A DNA stretch of 64,000 nucleotides from an uncultured Gammaproteobacteria bacterium (GTDB lineage Bacteria > Patescibacteriota > Microgenomatia > Levybacterales > UBA12049). A model generated the notes under the pieces. That model did not search any database. It was not told the DNA's origin and worked only from the letters and a program-made list of their open reading frames with translations. Positions 30,064-38,116 of the stretch are shown one piece after another; the stretch's first letter is position 1, and the number at the start of each line of letters is the position of its first letter. The stretch covers positions 155,575 to 219,574 of the forward strand of contig CAZCYO010000003.1 of the NCBI GenBank assembly GCA_964503265.1, given 5' to 3'. A program made the translations under genes and the position numbers.

Positions 30064-31245
30064 ATGGCTCGAAAGAAACTTTCTGAATATAAAGCGAAAT
30101 CACTTTTATATGCTGTTTTTGGTCAAGAATATTCAGGGATATCTGTTGGAGAGGGTGAGTTATCTACTCTTCCAGATCCGAAATCTTCATATGTTGTTAA
30201 AGTAGATCAGGGAGTAAAGAAACGGTTTAAAAAAGGACTTGTTCTCCTCAATATTACTTCTCAATCAATTTCAAAAGCGACTGAAACGTTACGAGAAAAG
30301 GGTTACAGTCATTTTCTCATTGAACCACAACAATCATACGATACTTCATCTGAACACTATCTTGCGCTATTGAGAGAGCGTAATGGAATAATGCTTTTTT
30401 ATTCTCCACATGGTGGAGTTGATATCGAAGAAAATCAAGGATCTATACAAAAAATAATGATTTCTTCGTTTGATAAAGAAAATATTAAACATATCGCACA
30501 ACAGATTCATATTGACGAACTTATTCTCCAAGCTCTTATTTTTGCTTTTAACACTTATTATTTTTCATTTTTAGAAATTAATCCATTTATTGTTATTAAT
30601 AAAAAATTTATTATGTTAGATGCAGCTGTCGAAGTAGATAGTACAGCAGAATTTTTTGTTGAAGGAGCGTGGAATGAGACTGATTTTACTGAAGAAAAAA
30701 ATATACAATTGCCTGAAGTCGAGCAGGTAAAAGCGCTTGCTAGTCGTAGCCAAGCTGCATTTTCACTGACTGTACTTAATCCTGAAGGATCACTAGGTAT
30801 GCTGCTTTCAAGTGGTGGTGCAAGTATCGTATTGGCAGATGAAGCAGGAAATCTTGGGTATGGAAACGAGCTGATTAATTATGGAGAATATAGTGGAAAC
30901 CCAAACGCTGAAGAAACATATCTCTATACAAGAAGTATTTTATCGTTACTTATAAAATCTAAGGCTTCAAAAAAAGCACTAATCATTGCTGGTGCTGTTG
31001 CTAACTTTACTGATATACGTATTACCTTCTCTGGTGTCATCAAAGCCCTCAGGGAGTGTTCGTCTGATCTTCGGGCACAACATATCAAGGTATTTGTTCG
31101 GCGCGGTGGTCCTAACCAAAAAGAAGGCTTATCGTTGATGACTGATTTTCTAGAGGAGGAAGATCTTTTTGGACAAGTAAAAGGACCAGAAATGGTTTTA
31201 ACTGATATTATTCATGAAGCTATCTCTTATATAAAAAATGATTAA
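30064..31245 (+). CDS. aclB: ATP-citrate lyase, ATP-grasp subunit (AclB-like; homologous to the N-terminal half of eukaryotic ACLY)
   Basis: Colinear similarity to the ACLY N-terminus: LSEYKAKSLLY, FLIEPQQ, FSFLEINPFIVIN, LTVLNPEGSLGMLLSSGGASIVLADEAGNLGYGNELINYGEYSGNP and KVFVRRGGPNQKEGL. Confidence 0.85.
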   Translation: MARKKLSEYKAKSLLYAVFGQEYSGISVGEGELSTLPDPKSSYVVKVDQGVKKRFKKGLVLLNITSQSISKATETLREKGYSHFLIEPQQSYDTSSEHYLALLRERNGIMLFYSPHGGVDIEENQGSIQKIMISSFDKENIKHIAQQIHIDELILQALIFAFNTYYFSFLEINPFIVINKKFIMLDAAVEVDSTAEFFVEGAWNETDFTEEKNIQLPEVEQVKALASRSQAAFSLTVLNPEGSLGMLLSSGGASIVLADEAGNLGYGNELINYGEYSGNPNAEETYLYTRSILSLLIKSKASKKALIIAGAVANFTDIRITFSGVIKALRECSSDLRAQHIKVFVRRGGPNQKEGLSLMTDFLEEEDLFGQVKGPEMVLTDIIHEAISYIKND

Positions 31246-33028
31246 CTTAGCATTATTACGCAGTAAAGAACCAAAAATTATTTCTTATGGAGTTCATAGA
31301 GGGATTATTCAATCTGTTCTTGATTACGACGTACTTCTTGGGCGAAAGCATCCGAGTATCGTTGGTATAATTGGCTCTGCAAAAGCCTTTGATAGATATT
31401 TTTTTGGTAAAAAAGAAATTCTAATTCCTGTTTTTTCATCAATAGATGAAGCATATCGGGTAAAAGATATAGTGACTCTTTTTATGAACGTTTCATCATC
31501 GAGAAGAGTGCTTTCAAGTACACAAGAGCTTCTCTCGTCATTCCCCGAGCTACAAGGAGGTGTTATTTTTGCAGAGGACGTTCCAGAAAAACAAGCATTG
31601 GAACTACAGGCATTATCTGAGAAGTATAATAAATGGATTATGGGACCTGCAAGTGTTGGCCTCTTGATTCCTGAGCATGTAAAACTTGGAGCGATCGGTG
31701 GTGTTGACTATCGACAGCTTATTAGTTCTCAATTATTAACTGCTGGAAATGTCGCTGTATTTTCAGCATCTGGTGGGATGACTAATGAAATTATTAGAGT
31801 TGTGACGGGAAATGGGAAGCATATTTCTTTTAGTCTTCATTTTGGTGGAGACCGATTTCCGATTATTCAGCCAAAGGATGCGTTTTTACTTGCAGAACAT
31901 GATATACAAACTGAGGTAATTGTGTATTATGGTGAGCTGGGTGGGTTTGATGAATATGAAATAGCAACACTCATAAAAGATAAAAAAATAACAAAACCTG
32001 TTATTTGTTATATCGCTGGTACTGTATCAGATTTATTTGAAACTCCTCCACAATTTGGGCATGCAAAGGCCATGGCGGAACAAAAAGGAGAAAGTGCTTC
32101 AGATAAGAAAAAAGCACTTCGTGAGGCCGGCGCAACCGTTGCAGACTCATTTGGAGAATTTGTTGAGCATATAAAAAAGATTGAAGCTGGAGTTCTTCCT
32201 GAGGAGAAAGATGTCACTGCTATTATGGCTGATATGCAACATCGTAAACCTGCGCTTATTACAACTAGTATCTCAAAAGATCATGATGGACAAGCGATGG
32301 TTTTGCAGGAGAATTTACTGACTTTTGCAAAGTCTCACTCATTTGCTTACGAAGTGGTATCGATGTTTCTTGGAAAGAAGATCACGTCAAAAGAACTTGA
32401 AGAATTTGTCGATTTTGTCCTTCGTATTCTAGTCGATCATGGGCCATATGTTTCAGGAGCGGTTAACACAATCATTACTGCTCGTGCAGGCAGGGATTTA
32501 GTTTCATCACTTGCTACCGGTATTCTAACAATCGGACCTCGATTTGGGGGAGCAATTAACCAAGCAGCAGGGAATTGGTTAGAGGGGGTTACTAGTGGCA
32601 AATCATCACATGAGTTTGTAGAGGTATTCGCAACGCAAAAAAAATATATCTCTGGAATTGGTCATAAAAAATATCGTGCTGACTTACCTGACCCGCGAGT
32701 TACTGAACTTCTTGCATTTACGGATAAGCTTAAAAAAAAGAAATTTACACTGTTCGCGAAACAGGTAGAAAAGATAACTACAGCAAAAAAAGGAAATCTT
32801 ATTTTAAATGTTGATGGAGCAATTGCAGCAATCCTCCTAGACATTCTCCACGAAAAGGAGGGAATGACTCATGCAGAACTTGAAAAGCTTGTAGAGATTG
32901 AATTTTTCAATGCTCTTTTTGTTCTTTCACGTTCTGTAGGATTTATTTCTCACTTCTTAGATCAAAAAAGATTAGATGAAGGGTTATTTAGGCTTGATGA
33001 AGATTTAGTTGCTGAAGCAGAGATGTAA
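31238..33028 (+). CDS. aclA: ATP-citrate lyase, CoA-binding/phospho-His subunit with citrate-synthase-like domain (AclA-like)
   Basis: GHKEILIPVF-like KKEILIPVF, the phospho-His motif QFGHAKAM (ACLY: QFGHAGA), VDHGPYVSGAVNTIITARAGRDLVSSLATGILTIGPRFGGA, GIGHKKY, NLILNVDG and FVLSRSVGFISHFLDQKRL. An 8-bp overlap with aclB. Confidence 0.85.
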   Translation: MINLALLRSKEPKIISYGVHRGIIQSVLDYDVLLGRKHPSIVGIIGSAKAFDRYFFGKKEILIPVFSSIDEAYRVKDIVTLFMNVSSSRRVLSSTQELLSSFPELQGGVIFAEDVPEKQALELQALSEKYNKWIMGPASVGLLIPEHVKLGAIGGVDYRQLISSQLLTAGNVAVFSASGGMTNEIIRVVTGNGKHISFSLHFGGDRFPIIQPKDAFLLAEHDIQTEVIVYYGELGGFDEYEIATLIKDKKITKPVICYIAGTVSDLFETPPQFGHAKAMAEQKGESASDKKKALREAGATVADSFGEFVEHIKKIEAGVLPEEKDVTAIMADMQHRKPALITTSISKDHDGQAMVLQENLLTFAKSHSFAYEVVSMFLGKKITSKELEEFVDFVLRILVDHGPYVSGAVNTIITARAGRDLVSSLATGILTIGPRFGGAINQAAGNWLEGVTSGKSSHEFVEVFATQKKYISGIGHKKYRADLPDPRVTELLAFTDKLKKKKFTLFAKQVEKITTAKKGNLILNVDGAIAAILLDILHEKEGMTHAELEKLVEIEFFNALFVLSRSVGFISHFLDQKRLDEGLFRLDEDLVAEAEM

Positions 33029-34950: not shown

Positions 34951-37221
34951 ATGTTTTGGGCAGATAAAGTAGCACAACAATTAAAAGAACGAAATCTTCC
35001 ACTTGAATGGGTGGATGATATGAAAACTCCATCCGGAAGAATCCATGTGGGATCTCTTTTAGGTGTTATTTTTCATGGTTTAGTCTTTAAAGCATTACAA
35101 GATGCGGGTGTAAATACGAAGTATACATATGTTTTTGAGAATCACGATCCGATGGATGATATTCCTTCATATTTATCTCGAGAAAAATTTGAACAGTATC
35201 TTGGTATGCCATTATTTAAGATTCCATCACCTGAGGATGGATTTGTAAATTTTGCAGAATATTATGCGCTCGAATTTAAAAAAGCATTCAATGAACTAGG
35301 GTTTCATCCTGAAATCATATGGACAAAAGATCTTTATACGAGTGGGAAAATGAACGAAGGGATTCGTATCGCACTCGATAACGCAGCAGAAATCAGGAAG
35401 ATTTATGAAGAAATGTATAAAAAACCAATGGCTTCTGATTGGTATCCTTTTCAAGTGTATTGTGAATCATGTGGAAAAGTCTCAACAACAAGAGTTTATG
35501 ACTGGGATGGCGAAAATGTTTCGTATCGATGTTTAGTTGATGCAACAGAATGGACGAAAGGTTGTGGATATGAGGGAAAGGTATCTCCTTTTAGTACTGA
35601 ATCTGGAATGACAGGAAAGCTGACGTGGAAAGTTGATTGGCCTGCTAAATGGCAAGCAATCGGTGTCACCGTTGAAGGGGCTGGCAAAGACCACATGAGT
35701 AAAGGGGGATCTCATGATGTCGCAACACAAGTGTGCGAAAGAGTGCTTAATTATGCTGTTCCTTTTCCAGTAGGGTATGAATTTATGCTTATTGGTGGCA
35801 AAAAAATGTCTTCTTCAAAAGGACGTGGGTTCGCAGCATCGGATATGACAACTATTTTGCCACCAGAGCTTGTACGGTTTTTAATTGTAAAAATGGATCC
35901 ACGTTCGCAAACAAATTTTGATCCAGGTGACGGAGACACAATTCCAAAGCTGTTCGACGAGTATCAAGAATATGCGCGTCATTTTATCGAGAAGAAAGAA
36001 GATGATGAAGCGAGGATTTTTGAACTTTCTCAAATTGATGGCGTGTCAATTCCACCTCTTGATATACGATTCTCTACACTTGCACAGTGGGTTCAAATGC
36101 CTAACATGCAGCAAAAGATTAGCGATTTAGGACTTGAAGAATGGGCAAAATATGCACGAATTTGGATTGAACGATTTGCTCCAGAGAATGAAAAATTCTT
36201 GATTCAAAAAGACCTTCCAAGTACTGTTGCTACCCTTTCTGAACAACAAAAAACATTCATCAAAGCCGTAGCTGACATGTTGGAGGATGAATTAGATGCC
36301 GAAACATTTCAAAAAGCTATCTATGAGAAATCAAAAGAATTGGGCATATCTTCAAAAGACGCATTTGGGGCAATTTATACTGCATTACTTGGAAAAGCTA
36401 ATGGACCTAAAGCTGGGTGGCTAATTCTCTCATTGGATAAAGATTTTGTAAAAAATCGTTTTATAGAAACATCTGAGTCTAAGCTTATTGAACAAGTAGG
36501 AGAGGATATATCGTATGGAAAATTTAATAATCCGGAAATATTTTCAATTGTTTCTGATGTAAAAGAAAAATATCCTAGTTTATCTGTGGGTGTAGCAATT
36601 ATTAGAGGTGTAAATATAAACGAAAAAAATAATGAACTTGAAAAAGAAAAAATGGAATTATTTGCTCGACTGAGTGGACTTACTACAGAAGTAATTAATG
36701 AATATCCGGAAGTGAAAGCGTATCGTACGCTATATAAAGAGATGGGTGTGGATTGGCATTCACGACGACCAAGTCCTGAAGCATTGCTTCGAAGAATTTC
36801 TCAAGGGAAAGACCTATACACTATAAATACCTGTGTTGATGCATACAATCTCGTTGTGATGGATAAAAGAATATCTATTGGAGCCTTTGATTTGGATACA
36901 CTTTCTCTTCCTACTTCGTTACGTTTGGCACGTGAAGGAGAAGAAATCTTGCTCCTTGGGGATAGTGAAGCAACAATATATAAATCATCAGAACTAGCAT
37001 ACTTTGATCAGATCGGGGGATATAATATTGATTTTAATTATCGTGATGCTATACGAACTGCAGTAACAGGTGAAACAAAAAATATTATGTTAAATGTCGA
37101 CGGCGTTTATGGAATTACACCACAGCAAGTTAATGAATCGCTACATCTTGCTGCTAAAAAAATTATTCACTACTGTGGGGGAGAAATTGAGTCGATAGGT
37201 GTCGTAACTGCTACTGACTAA
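34951..37221 (+). CDS. lysS: Class I lysyl-tRNA synthetase (LysK-type) fused to a C-terminal PheT-type B3/4 domain
   Basis: The N-terminal ~520 aa have the HIGH-like PSGRIHVGSL, class-I LysRS zinc-knuckle Cys residues (CESCGK...CLVDATEWTKGCGY) and KMSSSKG. The C-terminal ~230 aa carry IGAFDLDTL...LRLAREGEEILLLGDSE...LAYFDQIGGY, the B3/4 consensus. Confidence 0.8.
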   Translation: MFWADKVAQQLKERNLPLEWVDDMKTPSGRIHVGSLLGVIFHGLVFKALQDAGVNTKYTYVFENHDPMDDIPSYLSREKFEQYLGMPLFKIPSPEDGFVNFAEYYALEFKKAFNELGFHPEIIWTKDLYTSGKMNEGIRIALDNAAEIRKIYEEMYKKPMASDWYPFQVYCESCGKVSTTRVYDWDGENVSYRCLVDATEWTKGCGYEGKVSPFSTESGMTGKLTWKVDWPAKWQAIGVTVEGAGKDHMSKGGSHDVATQVCERVLNYAVPFPVGYEFMLIGGKKMSSSKGRGFAASDMTTILPPELVRFLIVKMDPRSQTNFDPGDGDTIPKLFDEYQEYARHFIEKKEDDEARIFELSQIDGVSIPPLDIRFSTLAQWVQMPNMQQKISDLGLEEWAKYARIWIERFAPENEKFLIQKDLPSTVATLSEQQKTFIKAVADMLEDELDAETFQKAIYEKSKELGISSKDAFGAIYTALLGKANGPKAGWLILSLDKDFVKNRFIETSESKLIEQVGEDISYGKFNNPEIFSIVSDVKEKYPSLSVGVAIIRGVNINEKNNELEKEKMELFARLSGLTTEVINEYPEVKAYRTLYKEMGVDWHSRRPSPEALLRRISQGKDLYTINTCVDAYNLVVMDKRISIGAFDLDTLSLPTSLRLAREGEEILLLGDSEATIYKSSELAYFDQIGGYNIDFNYRDAIRTAVTGETKNIMLNVDGVYGITPQQVNESLHLAAKKIIHYCGGEIESIGVVTATD

Positions 37222-37270
37222 TCGTTTGTAAATCATAACTATTCTTGCTAAGATAGGGTCTCTTAGGTGT

Positions 37271-38116
37271 ATGAAACGAACTTTTTTCATTATTCTTCCC
37301 TCTCTTATCCTTGCGTTGATCTTATTTCTGGTATATCAACTGTTTTTTAATAAAAATACTGGAAAAGGTGCATTACAGGTTACTGCCTCACCTGAAAGTA
37401 AATTATACTTAAATGGGAAATTTATTGGCCAGACCCCTTTTCCTAAATCAGAAGGTCAAAATATTTTTGCATCTGGTGACTACTCCTTACGTATTATTCC
37501 AAATGACACGAATTATCAAGCGTATGAAGAAAAAATTACCATTACGCGATCTACATTAACGGTTGTTGATCGTAAATTTGGTGAGTCTGGAGTCGCTGAA
37601 GGAAGTGTTATATCATTAGTGCCATTACCAAACCAGAAAGAAATTCAGTTACTTGTTCTTTCATTTCCTGAAAAAGCGAGTGTTTTTGTTGATTCCAATA
37701 TGGTCGGTACGACACCACTGTTACTTAAAGATTTAACACAGTCAGATCATAAATTAAAAATAAAAGCGGATGGTTATAGGGAAAAACTTATACCAATTAG
37801 AACTCCTGAAGGATATAAATTACAGGTTGTAGCTTATTTGGGAATTGATACTGACATTGCTCCTACTCCAACTATTGCTTCTCCATCTGCAACCCCAACA
37901 CCTACTGGTATAGCTAAGAAAATAACAATACTTAAAACCCCAACTGGTTATCTACGAGTACATGTCGATGCCACTATCAGTGGAGCAGAGATTGGTCGAG
38001 TTAGCCCGGGTGAAGTGTATACAATCGTAGATGAAAAAAAGGATTGGTTTGCAATTACGTTATCTGATGGAAAAATTGGATGGGTTAGTTCAGATTATGC
38101 TAAAGTTCAAGAGTAA
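37271..38116 (+). CDS. Membrane-anchored PEGA-domain / SH3b-domain surface protein
   Basis: An N-terminal TM helix. Two PEGA-like beta domains (PESKLYLNGKFIGQTPF, ASVFVDSNMVGTTPLLLKDL), a Pro/Thr linker, then a C-terminal SH3b (GYLRVHVDATISGAEIGRVSPGEVYTIVDEKKDWFAITLSDGKIGWVSSDY). Confidence 0.6.
   Translation: MKRTFFIILPSLILALILFLVYQLFFNKNTGKGALQVTASPESKLYLNGKFIGQTPFPKSEGQNIFASGDYSLRIIPNDTNYQAYEEKITITRSTLTVVDRKFGESGVAEGSVISLVPLPNQKEIQLLVLSFPEKASVFVDSNMVGTTPLLLKDLTQSDHKLKIKADGYREKLIPIRTPEGYKLQVVAYLGIDTDIAPTPTIASPSATPTPTGIAKKITILKTPTGYLRVHVDATISGAEIGRVSPGEVYTIVDEKKDWFAITLSDGKIGWVSSDYAKVQE

Follow-up and report, generated by a model that had tools for sequence, protein, structure and literature searches.

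A CtdA-like B3/4-fold module at the C-terminus of a patescibacterial class I lysyl-tRNA synthetase: a candidate tethered editing domain

The CtdA family of deacylases was first characterized in 2023. Lysyl-tRNA synthetase (LysRS) is, to our knowledge, regarded as lacking a domain for post-transfer editing, and we know of no LysRS of either class for which post-transfer editing has been described. In the available portions of the CtdA literature (PMC10018355; PMC12449066), the sole characterized activity of CtdA concerns canavanine on tRNA(Arg). Its residue N105 is essential for hydrolysis and G116 shapes the pocket, C166 is a strictly conserved specificity residue and a Gln or Glu is conserved at position 173, while the editing-site residues of Escherichia coli PheRS include H265 and G318 (PMC12449066). 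For class II LysRS, the available part of a review describes only pre-transfer editing, that is, the cyclization of homocysteine, homoserine and ornithine (PMC7373986). The AARS Online table of domains found in at least two synthetase families contains, in the part available, Edit-LIV and Edit-AT, and the B3/B4 type is absent from it (PMC11580382).

A class I LysRS with an additional C-terminal module

The window analyzed here, a stretch of 64,000 nucleotides, carries on its plus strand a gene (34951..37221) for a LysRS joined through a linker to a CtdA-like B3/4 module. It is a single ORF of 756 aa plus stop, in which internal stops are absent. A reading made from the sequence alone (hereafter the sequence-only reading) had proposed a complete class I LysRS in the N-terminal part, and this was borne out, as residues 1–504 match TIGR00467 lysS_arch of NCBIfam with 369.6 bits (cut-off 147.55) and the solved LysRS chain 1irx_A aligns to residues 2–503 (E 1.2e-65). 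In detail, the catalytic domain (residues 2–362; 34954..36036, plus strand; PF01921 of Pfam, E 3.3e-93, 312.9 bits against a cut-off of 27) contains the motifs H32-x-G34 (35044–35055, plus strand) and K285-M-S-S-S289 (35803–35817, plus strand), which we take to be the HIGH-like and KMSKS-like signatures of class I. Their residues H32, G34, K285, M286, S287 and S289 show no variation across 44 fused homologues. The anticodon-binding helical domain follows at residues 426–503 (36226..36459, plus strand; PF19269, 26.8 bits against a cut-off of 23.6), and the LysRS body is predicted to be functional.

The fusion gene encodes the sole LysRS of the bacterium, whose genome is small. The genome, scored 100% complete, has one PF01921 gene, and its best match to class II LysRS reaches 110.7 bits against a cut-off of 427.6; a second LysRS that would make the fusion gene redundant was thus not found in it.

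The full-length model has a mean pLDDT of 91.0 and a pTM of 0.66, a value at which the geometry between the domains is not predicted, while each half of the protein is confidently folded. The pLDDT falls below 50 only at residues 512–521 (36484..36513, plus strand), a low-confidence linker. The plain LysRS of genome G106, from the same family, stops just short of the equivalent point, and a long C-terminal extension is missing in 55 of the 60 LysRS-I-bearing genomes of the phylum sample.

The module beyond the linker occupies approximately residues 525–756 (36523..37218, plus strand), as delimited by Foldseek, profile and model. The presence of a B3/4-fold domain was confirmed by PF03483, which covers residues 591–741 (36721..37173, plus strand; E 6.7e-21, 75.1 bits against a cut-off of 29.3), and the motifs quoted in the sequence-only reading do lie in this C-terminal part. 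According to Pfam, the other domains of the protein are those of LysRS-I only. With its ~230 aa, the module is the counterpart of a complete free-standing protein, which measures about 225–240 aa, and its profile covers residues 1–230 of the free-standing relatives. The model of residues 505–756 (pLDDT 94.3, pTM 0.89) retrieves CtdA structures 9mkl and 9f7e as the top Foldseek matches (E 5e-15 to 1e-14, ~235 aligned columns, TMq 0.73–0.77, TMt 0.81–0.83), with the PheRS beta chains as a second tier (E 1e-10, TMq 0.54–0.58). The module profile ranks the PDB in the same order, that is, 9f7e_A (2.9e-9), 9mkl_A (4.1e-8) and PheRS beta (5e-7). Since CtdA comes first by both sequence profile and fold, the module is CtdA-like, closer to the free-standing enzyme than to PheT, and the earlier label of a PheT-type domain has to be given up; the wider statement that this is an aminoacyl-tRNA editing fold, also found in free-standing deacylases, stands.

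A substitute for a lost PheT editing domain is excluded, as the genome's own PheT-like ORF (G000:C2) retains a B3/4 domain (154 bits).

The continuity of the junction was checked with Logan contigs from other sequencing runs. A contig of 362 nt from run X2, which belongs to the study of the likely source run, covers 36320–36681 with 0 differences. A contig of 151 nt from run X3, of another study, covers 36385–36535 gap-free with 3 substitutions, and one of 687 nt from run X4, an RNA library of a third study, covers 36305–36969 with 41 substitutions and, as sole indels, a compensating +1/−1 pair at 36914–36918. No single contig spans the full 1.4 kb in any run examined. Both PF01921 and PF03483 are present in 118 of the 120 best homologues listed, the window's own protein (P0002) included. 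The exceptions are P0112 and P0117, the latter a 78% identical homologue with no PF03483 listed; the homologue P0090 has it. In the genome sample of the order, 42 of the 46 module matches are contained in open frames of 729–986 aa, and in the module no variation is seen at 24 columns among the 44 fused homologues (39–79% identity). The intact ORF, the bridged junction, the two-domain homologues and the invariant columns together indicate that the fusion is genuine, conserved and under selection.

Distribution and relatives of the module

The fusion is patchily distributed. Of 201 genomes sampled from the window's order, 45 have the module and 156 are without a match; in the phylum sample, 21 of 401 genomes have it. 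Two genomes of the same family, G106 and G328, encode a plain LysRS of 503 aa with no second B3/4 copy. The downstream genes there are those of a Ham1-family protein and SerRS, and a split arrangement, with the B3/4 domain encoded by a gene of its own after that of LysRS, was rejected since the sole B3_4 match of these genomes lies in a PheT-sized ORF. Given the plain LysRS of such close relatives and the 156 genomes without a match, the module is dispensable. The sequence-only reading had called the fusion atypical for LysRS, which holds in general but not within the order itself, where related genomes are divided between those with the same fusion and those, like G106 and G328, with the plain enzyme.

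Carriage of the module is apparently linked to a larger genome, in a listing outside which most non-carriers fall. As to the titles of the deposited records, 80 loci divide into 40 of Patescibacteria-group taxa, 34 of other phyla and 6 named "bacterium" only; 26 of the 34 read "uncultured Gammaproteobacteria", all labels being as deposited.

The neighbors of the gene are an ATP-citrate-lyase-like ORF, a DUF1653 gene, MurB, a PEGA+SH3 protein, UbiA and a GT4 transferase, and this neighborhood gives no hint of a pathway for a non-proteinogenic amino acid. A scan for promoters and terminators returned fewer matches than shuffled sequence.

The best 150 of 3678 relatives of the module include proteins in which it is carried by a class II LysRS; the TIGR00499 cut-off was passed by all 11 such fusions tested, among them P0185 and P0146, the latter with an additional tRNA_bind domain. 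The nearest relatives of the window's module are these C-terminal modules on class II LysRS, with identities of up to 56% (55.8% over 224 residues for P0123).

An IQ-TREE phylogeny of 80 modules, from which the characterized CtdA sequences themselves were left out, placed all LysRS-attached C-terminal modules (22/22 of LysRS-I and 15/15 of LysRS-II) in one clade (SH-aLRT 92), hereafter the lysine clade, together with one "free" sequence. Such library representatives come without taxonomy or context, so some "free" sequences may be fragments; P0135 and P0149 are indeed C-terminal fragments. Within the clade, the modules of the two LysRS classes are intermixed, and a topology holding the LysRS-I-attached modules together was rejected (delta lnL 271, p-AU 3e-46), the groups of this AU test having been named after inspection of a first tree. 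In the trees, the lysine clade is separate from CtdA-1-like sequences (..CRRWNWRQ type), and neither in the sampled genomes nor in the best 150 of 3678 relatives was it seen attached to a synthetase other than LysRS. More distant CtdA-like modules of the same phylum are attached to ArgRS, TyrRS, TrpRS (L015 in the trees) and MetRS.

CtdA-like B3/4 deacylases could tentatively be seen as a mobile, amino-acid-specific proofreading cassette in Patescibacteria, the lysine clade having been repeatedly exchanged between LysRS classes, although we would put the chances of this somewhat below even. Instead of the modules being exchanged, the synthetase bodies may have been swapped under a lysine-clade module.

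Pocket residues and the proposed function

Two blocks of the module were mapped to the pocket of CtdA through a HMMER alignment to 9mkl_A, with equivalences that are read at about 15–16% identity. The putative active-site block includes N633, G644, F646 and D647 (36847..36891, plus strand), all unchanged in the 44 fused homologues, and the putative second pocket block consists of N692, D694, F695, N696, Y697, R698 and D699 (37024..37047, plus strand). By this alignment, N633 corresponds to N105 of CtdA and N254 of PheRS, G644 to G116 of CtdA and H265 of PheRS, N692 to the position of C166 of CtdA, and D699 to Q173 of CtdA and G318 of PheRS. The essential Asn and the pocket Gly of CtdA are thus retained, and Cys166 and the Gln/Glu at 173 are replaced by Asn and Asp. 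Set against the PheRS editing site, the module keeps Asn254 alone, with Gly for His265 and Asp for Gly318, while the B3/4 domain of the genome's own PheT has His and Gly in these two columns.

In the wider set of modules, the N633 column is Asn in 21 of 22 LysRS-I-attached and in 15 of 15 LysRS-II-attached sequences, and the G644 column is Gly or Ala in all. The modules of both LysRS classes share the signature F/Y646, D694 and D699. On the contrary, the ArgRS-attached modules have R/A/M/Y in place of D694 and E/Q in place of D699. In detail, the 10 ArgRS-attached modules have Glu at 646 in nine cases, Cys at 692 in seven, Trp at 695 in eight and Glu or Gln at 699 in all. They resemble P0194, a free form of the CtdA-1-like type, which has Asp, Cys, Trp and Gln at 646, 692, 695 and 699, and Arg at 694. 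The column equivalent to C166 varies even within the lysine clade, with N10/C6/T3/A2 in LysRS-I-attached and T6/N6/C3 in LysRS-II-attached modules; consequently, one common substrate is not assured.

The relation of the additional module to a known tRNA-proofreading enzyme and its presence on both LysRS classes suggest that lysine is subject to a proofreading step not described so far. We favor, with a probability of roughly 0.55 and on the basis of sequence comparison and predicted structure, the reading that it is a tethered domain which edits, after transfer, tRNA(Lys) that has been mischarged with a lysine look-alike. A flexible linker of ~10 residues would join a complete CtdA-family deacylase to the C-terminus of LysRS. 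The synthetase would attach the look-alike to tRNA(Lys), and the module would hydrolyze this product after transfer and spare Lys-tRNA(Lys). The amino acid removed may be a near-cognate or non-proteinogenic one, probably cationic, for which ornithine, thialysine and oxalysine are candidates by guess; the sequence-only reading had named ornithine and homocysteine, on no firmer ground. Since the same clade is found on both unrelated LysRS classes and the tether is flexible, the module would probably resample the acceptor end as a tethered trans-editing factor, and not through a fixed channel for shuttling the CCA end.

Appended tRNA-binding domains raise the tRNA affinity of other synthetases, and the module could likewise be a non-catalytic appendage for tRNA binding or handover, with which LysRS would bind tRNA(Lys) more tightly and which would have no part in hydrolysis. 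The dispensability of the module in close relatives and the tRNA_bind domain of P0146, by which tRNA-binding additions do occur on such enzymes, agree with this, as does the binding of the tRNA 3′ end by B3/4 domains, in which R244 of PheRS contacts C75 (PMC12449066). We nevertheless hold it to be unlikely. The residues invariant in the fused homologues include N633, G644, D647, N696 and D699, which align with the lining of the catalytic pocket of CtdA, and the equivalent of N633 is required for hydrolysis by CtdA (PMC12449066). Moreover, the fold of the entire free-standing enzyme has been kept, and the differences at pocket positions between lysine- and arginine-attached modules are more in keeping with recognition of the amino acid than with a generic binding of tRNA.

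The module could also be an active deacylase whose target is not a LysRS product, either a general or D-aminoacyl-tRNA deacylase or a CtdA-like deacylase of canavanyl-tRNA(Arg). A DTD (PF02580) was not found in the genome scored 100% complete, the tether suggests action in trans, and, in the available portions of the CtdA literature, CtdA acts on tRNA(Arg) in trans (PMC10018355; PMC12449066). This reading appears improbable, as the lysine clade stands apart from the clade of CtdA-1-like and ArgRS-attached modules and lacks their signature of Glu, Cys, Trp and Gln/Glu. That this clade was joined to both of the unrelated LysRS classes but, in the sampled genomes and the best 150 relatives, to no other synthetase would be difficult to account for if lysine or tRNA(Lys) were not the link between them.

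Finally, an artificial origin of the fusion, through a frameshift, an overlooked stop or the chimeric assembly of two genes, for which we found no support other than the origin of the window in a metagenome-type assembly, can practically be dismissed in view of the intact ORF, the junction-spanning contigs from three studies, the same architecture in homologues from many assemblies and the long open frames around the module matches.

If the modules of the lysine clade are active, they would provide the first case of post-transfer editing by a LysRS and would point to a so far undiscovered natural antimetabolite of lysine (or to ornithine) that scavenging, biosynthesis-poor cells must exclude from their proteins. 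A module that follows lysine specificity across the divide of class I and class II provides a directly testable hypothesis, namely that of a new proofreading activity with F/Y646, D694 and D699 as new specificity determinants. Together with the fusions of ArgRS, TyrRS, TrpRS and MetRS, those of LysRS suggest that, in amino-acid scavengers with small genomes, many synthetases are supplemented with editing in cis or by a tethered domain. In practice, modules of this kind could help in finding natural amino-acid antimetabolites and could serve as tools for controlling the misincorporation of lysine analogues.

Comparison with known systems

The LysRS-B3/4 architecture is presumably shown in public domain-architecture listings. 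No published description of the fusion was found in searches that covered titles, abstracts and main texts and in which the slashed phrase "B3/4" is unsearchable, and nothing relevant to a LysRS or lysine fusion stands in the texts of PMC12449066, PMC10018355, bioRxiv 10.1101/2024.11.30.626143 and PMC13149037.

Compared with the solved LysRS-I (PDB 1IRX), residues 1–504 of the window's protein match both TIGR00467 and chain 1irx_A over the full length. However, the solved chain has 523 aa and the window's protein has 250 extra residues.

CtdA (9F7E, 9MKL) is the closest described relative of these extra residues. The fold matches across the whole ~230-aa protein (TM 0.73–0.83), the best sequence match in the PDB is to CtdA, and both belong to the same superfamily of ~225-aa proteins. 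On the other hand, the CtdA structures are only about 15–16% identical to the module, in which Phe takes the place of a Glu of CtdA, and Asp694 that of an Arg. Furthermore, CtdA is free-standing, whereas the window's module is fused to a synthetase and associated with LysRS and not with ArgRS.

The B3/B4 domain of PheT shares with the module the Pfam family PF03483 and the Asn equivalent to N254 of PheRS. The module differs in the Gly and Asp at the columns of H265 and G318 and in being located outside the multi-domain chain of PheT (B5, tRNA-binding and class II-like domains).

The pre-transfer editing of class II LysRS, as presented in the available part of the review (PMC7373986), answers the same problem of lysine look-alikes entering LysRS. 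It precedes transfer, is carried out by the synthetic site and requires no added domain, whereas modules of the window's type are found on both LysRS classes and would act after transfer. Lastly, the AlaX-type domains of AlaRS and ThrRS and the YbaK/INS-type domain of ProRS are, in the available part of PMC11580382, similar cases of a deacylase fold that exists both alone and fused to a synthetase; the difference is that here it is the B3/4 fold that is carried by LysRS-I, LysRS-II, ArgRS, TyrRS, TrpRS and MetRS.

Architecture and genomic setting of the fused gene

The gene at 34951..37221 (+) is a single uninterrupted ORF of 756 codons. Residues 1-504 form a full-length class I lysyl-tRNA synthetase (LysRS-I; TIGR00467, 369.6 bits against a cut-off of 147.55), in which PF01921 covers residues 2-362 (E 3.3e-93) and the Pfam anticodon-binding domain PF19269 residues 426-503. 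The solved LysRS chain 1irx_A matches residues 2-503 (E 1.2e-65). In the C-terminal module, B3_4 (PF03483) is located at residues 591-741 (E 6.7e-21, 75.1 bits against a cut-off of 29.3). Thus, both parts named in the sequence-only reading, a complete class I LysRS followed by a B3/4 domain, are recovered. In the AlphaFold model of the whole protein (44 homologues as input; mean pLDDT 91.0, pTM 0.66), residues 512-521 are the only stretch with pLDDT <50, and residues 505-756 modelled separately reach a pLDDT of 94.3 and a pTM of 0.89. The prediction describes a flexible linker between two well-folded bodies.

The fusion is real, as that reading had proposed. Logan contigs from other sequencing runs bridge the junction in frame: one (X2) spans 36320-36681 with 0 differences, one from a different study (X3) spans 36385-36535 with 3 substitutions, and one from an RNA library of a third study (X4) spans 36305-36969 as a variant ~94% identical to the window, whose sole indels are a compensating +1/-1 pair at 36914-36918. 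PF01921 and PF03483 are both present in 118 of the 120 best homologues (748-1077 aa, with a few partial sequences shorter), and those with names are annotated as lysine--tRNA ligase (Levybacteria, Roizmanbacteria, Patescibacteria). Across 44 fused homologues, 39-79% identical, 24 module columns are invariant. With the junction bridged and the same two domains recurring, an artefact has practically no chance of explaining the fusion. The ~94% identical variant occurs, over 36305-37294, in contigs of X4 and a further run, X5, both wastewater metatranscriptome libraries, and such contigs cannot prove transcription.

The host genome (1.38 Mb, 5 contigs, scored 100% complete and 0.78% contaminated) has this gene as its only LysRS. 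It is the single strong PF01921 match, and the highest class II LysRS (LysRS-II) score in the genome, 110.7 bits, falls short of the 427.6 cut-off. The genome's PheT-like ORF (PheRS beta subunit) keeps its own B3/4 domain (154 bits), so that an origin of the module as a displaced part of PheT is ruled out. The neighboring genes, i.e., an ATP-citrate-lyase-like ORF, DUF1653, MurB, a PEGA+SH3 protein, UbiA and a GT4 transferase, were read as housekeeping. In the first of these (31238-33028 (+), 596 aa), a CoA-ligase domain (PF00549) is found together with a citrate-synthase C-terminal domain (PF00285), an arrangement resembling ATP-citrate lyase, here in a genome of 1.38 Mb. One YbaK-type (PF04073) ORF of 169 aa is located elsewhere (G000:C1:174731-175099 (+)).

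Distribution and phylogeny of the module

Among 401 evenly drawn genomes of the phylum Patescibacteriota, LysRS-I was found in 60 (the unpublished genome G154 counted), 5 of which carry the long form (759-782 aa), and any module at E <= 1e-15 was found in 21. The survey of related LysRS-I genes proposed earlier therefore does find the fusion in relatives. Within the order Levybacterales, the module is present in 45 of 201 genomes, and 42 of the 46 matches fall in open frames of 729-986 aa, which we infer from length and score to be LysRS-I fusions. In two genomes of the window's own family (G106, G328), LysRS is plain, 503 aa long, and ends where the window's linker starts; its neighbors, Ham1-family and SerRS genes, differ from those of the window, and a second B3_4 match was not found in either genome. 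For 34 of 80 related loci (L046-L125), the record title names another phylum, in 26 cases "uncultured Gammaproteobacteria" (titles as deposited), and modules from such records are 55-69% identical to that of the window.

Fused and plain forms are intermingled in the tree of LysRS-I bodies (FastTree, 68 rows, with every third fused database match kept). The LysRS of the window falls in a group with P0003, a fused form, and P0117, a plain one. The large fused clade has the plain G106/G328/G354 group as its sister, and fused forms also make up separate lineages in G183, G005+G033 and G353. This interleaving, together with the patchy spread, indicates that the module is a non-essential add-on which has been repeatedly gained, lost or exchanged.

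When 1.84 billion representatives were searched exhaustively with the module profile, 3678 relatives were obtained (125 at E <= 1e-30). The best 150 of these, sorted into types with hmmsearch and phmmer run locally and checked with Pfam and NCBIfam, include LysRS-I fusions, many free-standing proteins of 215-240 aa and, among the closest relatives, LysRS-II fusions. The last include ten with the module at the C-terminus (P0123, P0132, P0133, P0134, P0138, P0144, P0146, P0148, P0151, P0152), which, with the N-terminal fusion P0185, all pass the TIGR00499 cut-off (11/11 tested). The window module is 55.8% identical to that of P0123 over 224 residues, inside the range of 54-63% seen with other LysRS-I-attached representatives, and the modules of P0123 (class II) and P0128 (class I fragment) are 67.9% identical.

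In both module trees (FastTree, 130 modules; IQ-TREE, LG+G4, quick, 80 modules), every LysRS-I-attached and every C-terminal LysRS-II-attached module belongs to one clade, in which the two kinds are intermixed. In the IQ-TREE phylogeny this lysine clade holds 22 LysRS-I, 15 LysRS-II and 1 "free" rows (SH-aLRT 92). Forcing the 22 into one group against the 15 was rejected (delta lnL 271, p-AU 3e-46), with groups named after the first tree had been seen. Modules of both LysRS classes have in common N633, G/A644, F/Y646, D647, D694, N696, Y697, R698 and D699.

A second clade contains CtdA-1-like free proteins and N-terminal fusions. CtdA-1-like P0194, for instance, carries Cys in place of N692, Arg in place of D694, Trp in place of F695 and Gln in place of D699. 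N-terminal fusions occur on ArgRS (P0165, with two tandem modules, P0198, P0205, P0216, P0270) and on LysRS-II (P0185, P0222). In the window's phylum, LysRS-II-attached modules are found in G047 and G234, both above the TIGR00499 cut-off; in G001 the carrier of the module also has LysRS-II as its best family, but its score of 396 bits does not reach the cut-off of 427.6. ArgRS-attached ones are found in G259 (by TIGR00456; L019:331-2925 (-), N-terminal B3_4) and in G019, G346 and G379 (by Pfam ArgRS domains). Other carriers are a TyrRS with N-terminal B3_4 (L025:2011-4017 (+), G047), a TrpRS with an N-terminal YbaK-type tRNA_edit domain and B3_4 (L015:1166-3424 (-), G118) and a MetRS with C-terminal B3_4 (L016:2550-4925 (-), G346). 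P0111 is a LysRS-I with two tandem modules, P0133, P0146 and G234 (L014:1098-3941 (-)) combine LysRS-II, B3_4 and HD, with tRNA_bind also in P0146, and P0134 combines LysRS-II, B3_4 and DUF2000.

One genome with a plain LysRS-I of 514 aa (G317) also encodes a free-standing 243-aa module (L020:1368-2096 (-)). Given its CtdA-1-type signature (Glu, Cys, Arg, Trp and Glu at F646, N692, D694, F695 and D699), this is probably a genuine CtdA rather than a lysine-type module that became detached. Some module matches (G259, G165, G379, G052, G430) contain one in-frame TGA or TAG. In G259 a stop-free frame covers the entire 865-aa ArgRS fusion, so the stop is probably upstream of its start.

Putative function and relation to CtdA and PheT

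CtdA is described as a stand-alone editing protein hydrolysing canavanyl-tRNA(Arg) (PMC10018355, PMC12449066). A profile of four aligned LysRS-I-attached modules (alignment A1) has CtdA as its top PDB matches (9f7e_A, 2.9e-9; 9mkl_A, 4.1e-8), followed by PheRS beta subunits from 5e-7. Similarly, CtdA chains take Foldseek ranks 1-3 (E 5e-15 to 1e-14, TMq 0.73-0.77, TMt 0.81-0.83), with alignments of about 235 columns, i.e., the whole CtdA protein, and PheRS beta chains come next (E 1e-10, TMq 0.54-0.58). The earlier view of the domain as an editing-type fold is in agreement with these matches.

For S. enterica CtdA, PMC12449066 describes N105 as essential, G116 and Q173 as shaping the pocket, and C166 as tuning specificity. 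By HMMER alignment to 9mkl_A (chain numbering offset 2; about 15% identity), N105, G116 and Q173 correspond to N633, G644 and D699, each invariant in the 44 fused homologues. C166 is matched by N692, which shows at least 90% conservation in close fused homologues.

The module keeps a catalytic Asn and a pocket of the CtdA type as well as the complete fold of the free-standing enzyme, and modules attached to lysine enzymes differ in the pocket from those attached to arginine enzymes. These features suggest that it is an active aminoacyl-tRNA deacylase, with a specificity that would follow its carrier synthetase. Counting against this are the dispensability of the module, the variability of the C166-equivalent position inside the lysine clade and a residue mapping at about 15% identity. 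A non-catalytic tRNA-binding appendage is an unlikely alternative. Somewhat less probable still is a deacylase whose target is unrelated to LysRS, a reading favored by the lack of any match to D-aminoacyl-tRNA deacylase (DTD, PF02580) in the genome, scored 100% complete.

As a deacylase following its synthetase, the module would hydrolyse aminoacyl-tRNA as a tethered trans-editing (resampling) domain. The two LysRS classes reach the acceptor stem from opposite sides. Since the same clade is placed on both classes, behind a 10-residue tether of low confidence, a fixed CCA-translocation path is unlikely and the tethered mode seems to fit better. Both LysRS forms recognise the same tRNA determinants (PMC7373986). 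The clade-specific Asp pair D694 and D699 may point to a cationic side chain as substrate. Ornithine, thialysine and oxalysine are possible candidates.

Fused proteins are already in public databases, named merely lysine--tRNA ligase. Literature searches, for which slash-containing domain names are not searchable, found no published LysRS with a B3/4 or CtdA-like domain, and they found no published CtdA-like domains fused to synthetases. LysRS editing is described as pre-transfer only in the available portion of PMC7373986, and the AARS Online shared-domain table (PMC11580382) has no B3/B4-type domain. The LysRS fusion thus places an editing-type domain at the end of a synthetase, and adds a new branch to the CtdA family.

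The PheRS editing residues H265 and G318 sit at the positions of CtdA G116 and Q173 (PMC12449066). The genome's own PheT has H and G in the G644 and D699 columns, whereas the module has Gly and Asp. Judged by these residues, the pocket is CtdA-like and not PheT-like, in agreement with the profile and Foldseek rankings, and the "PheT-type" label of the sequence-only reading gives way to CtdA-type.
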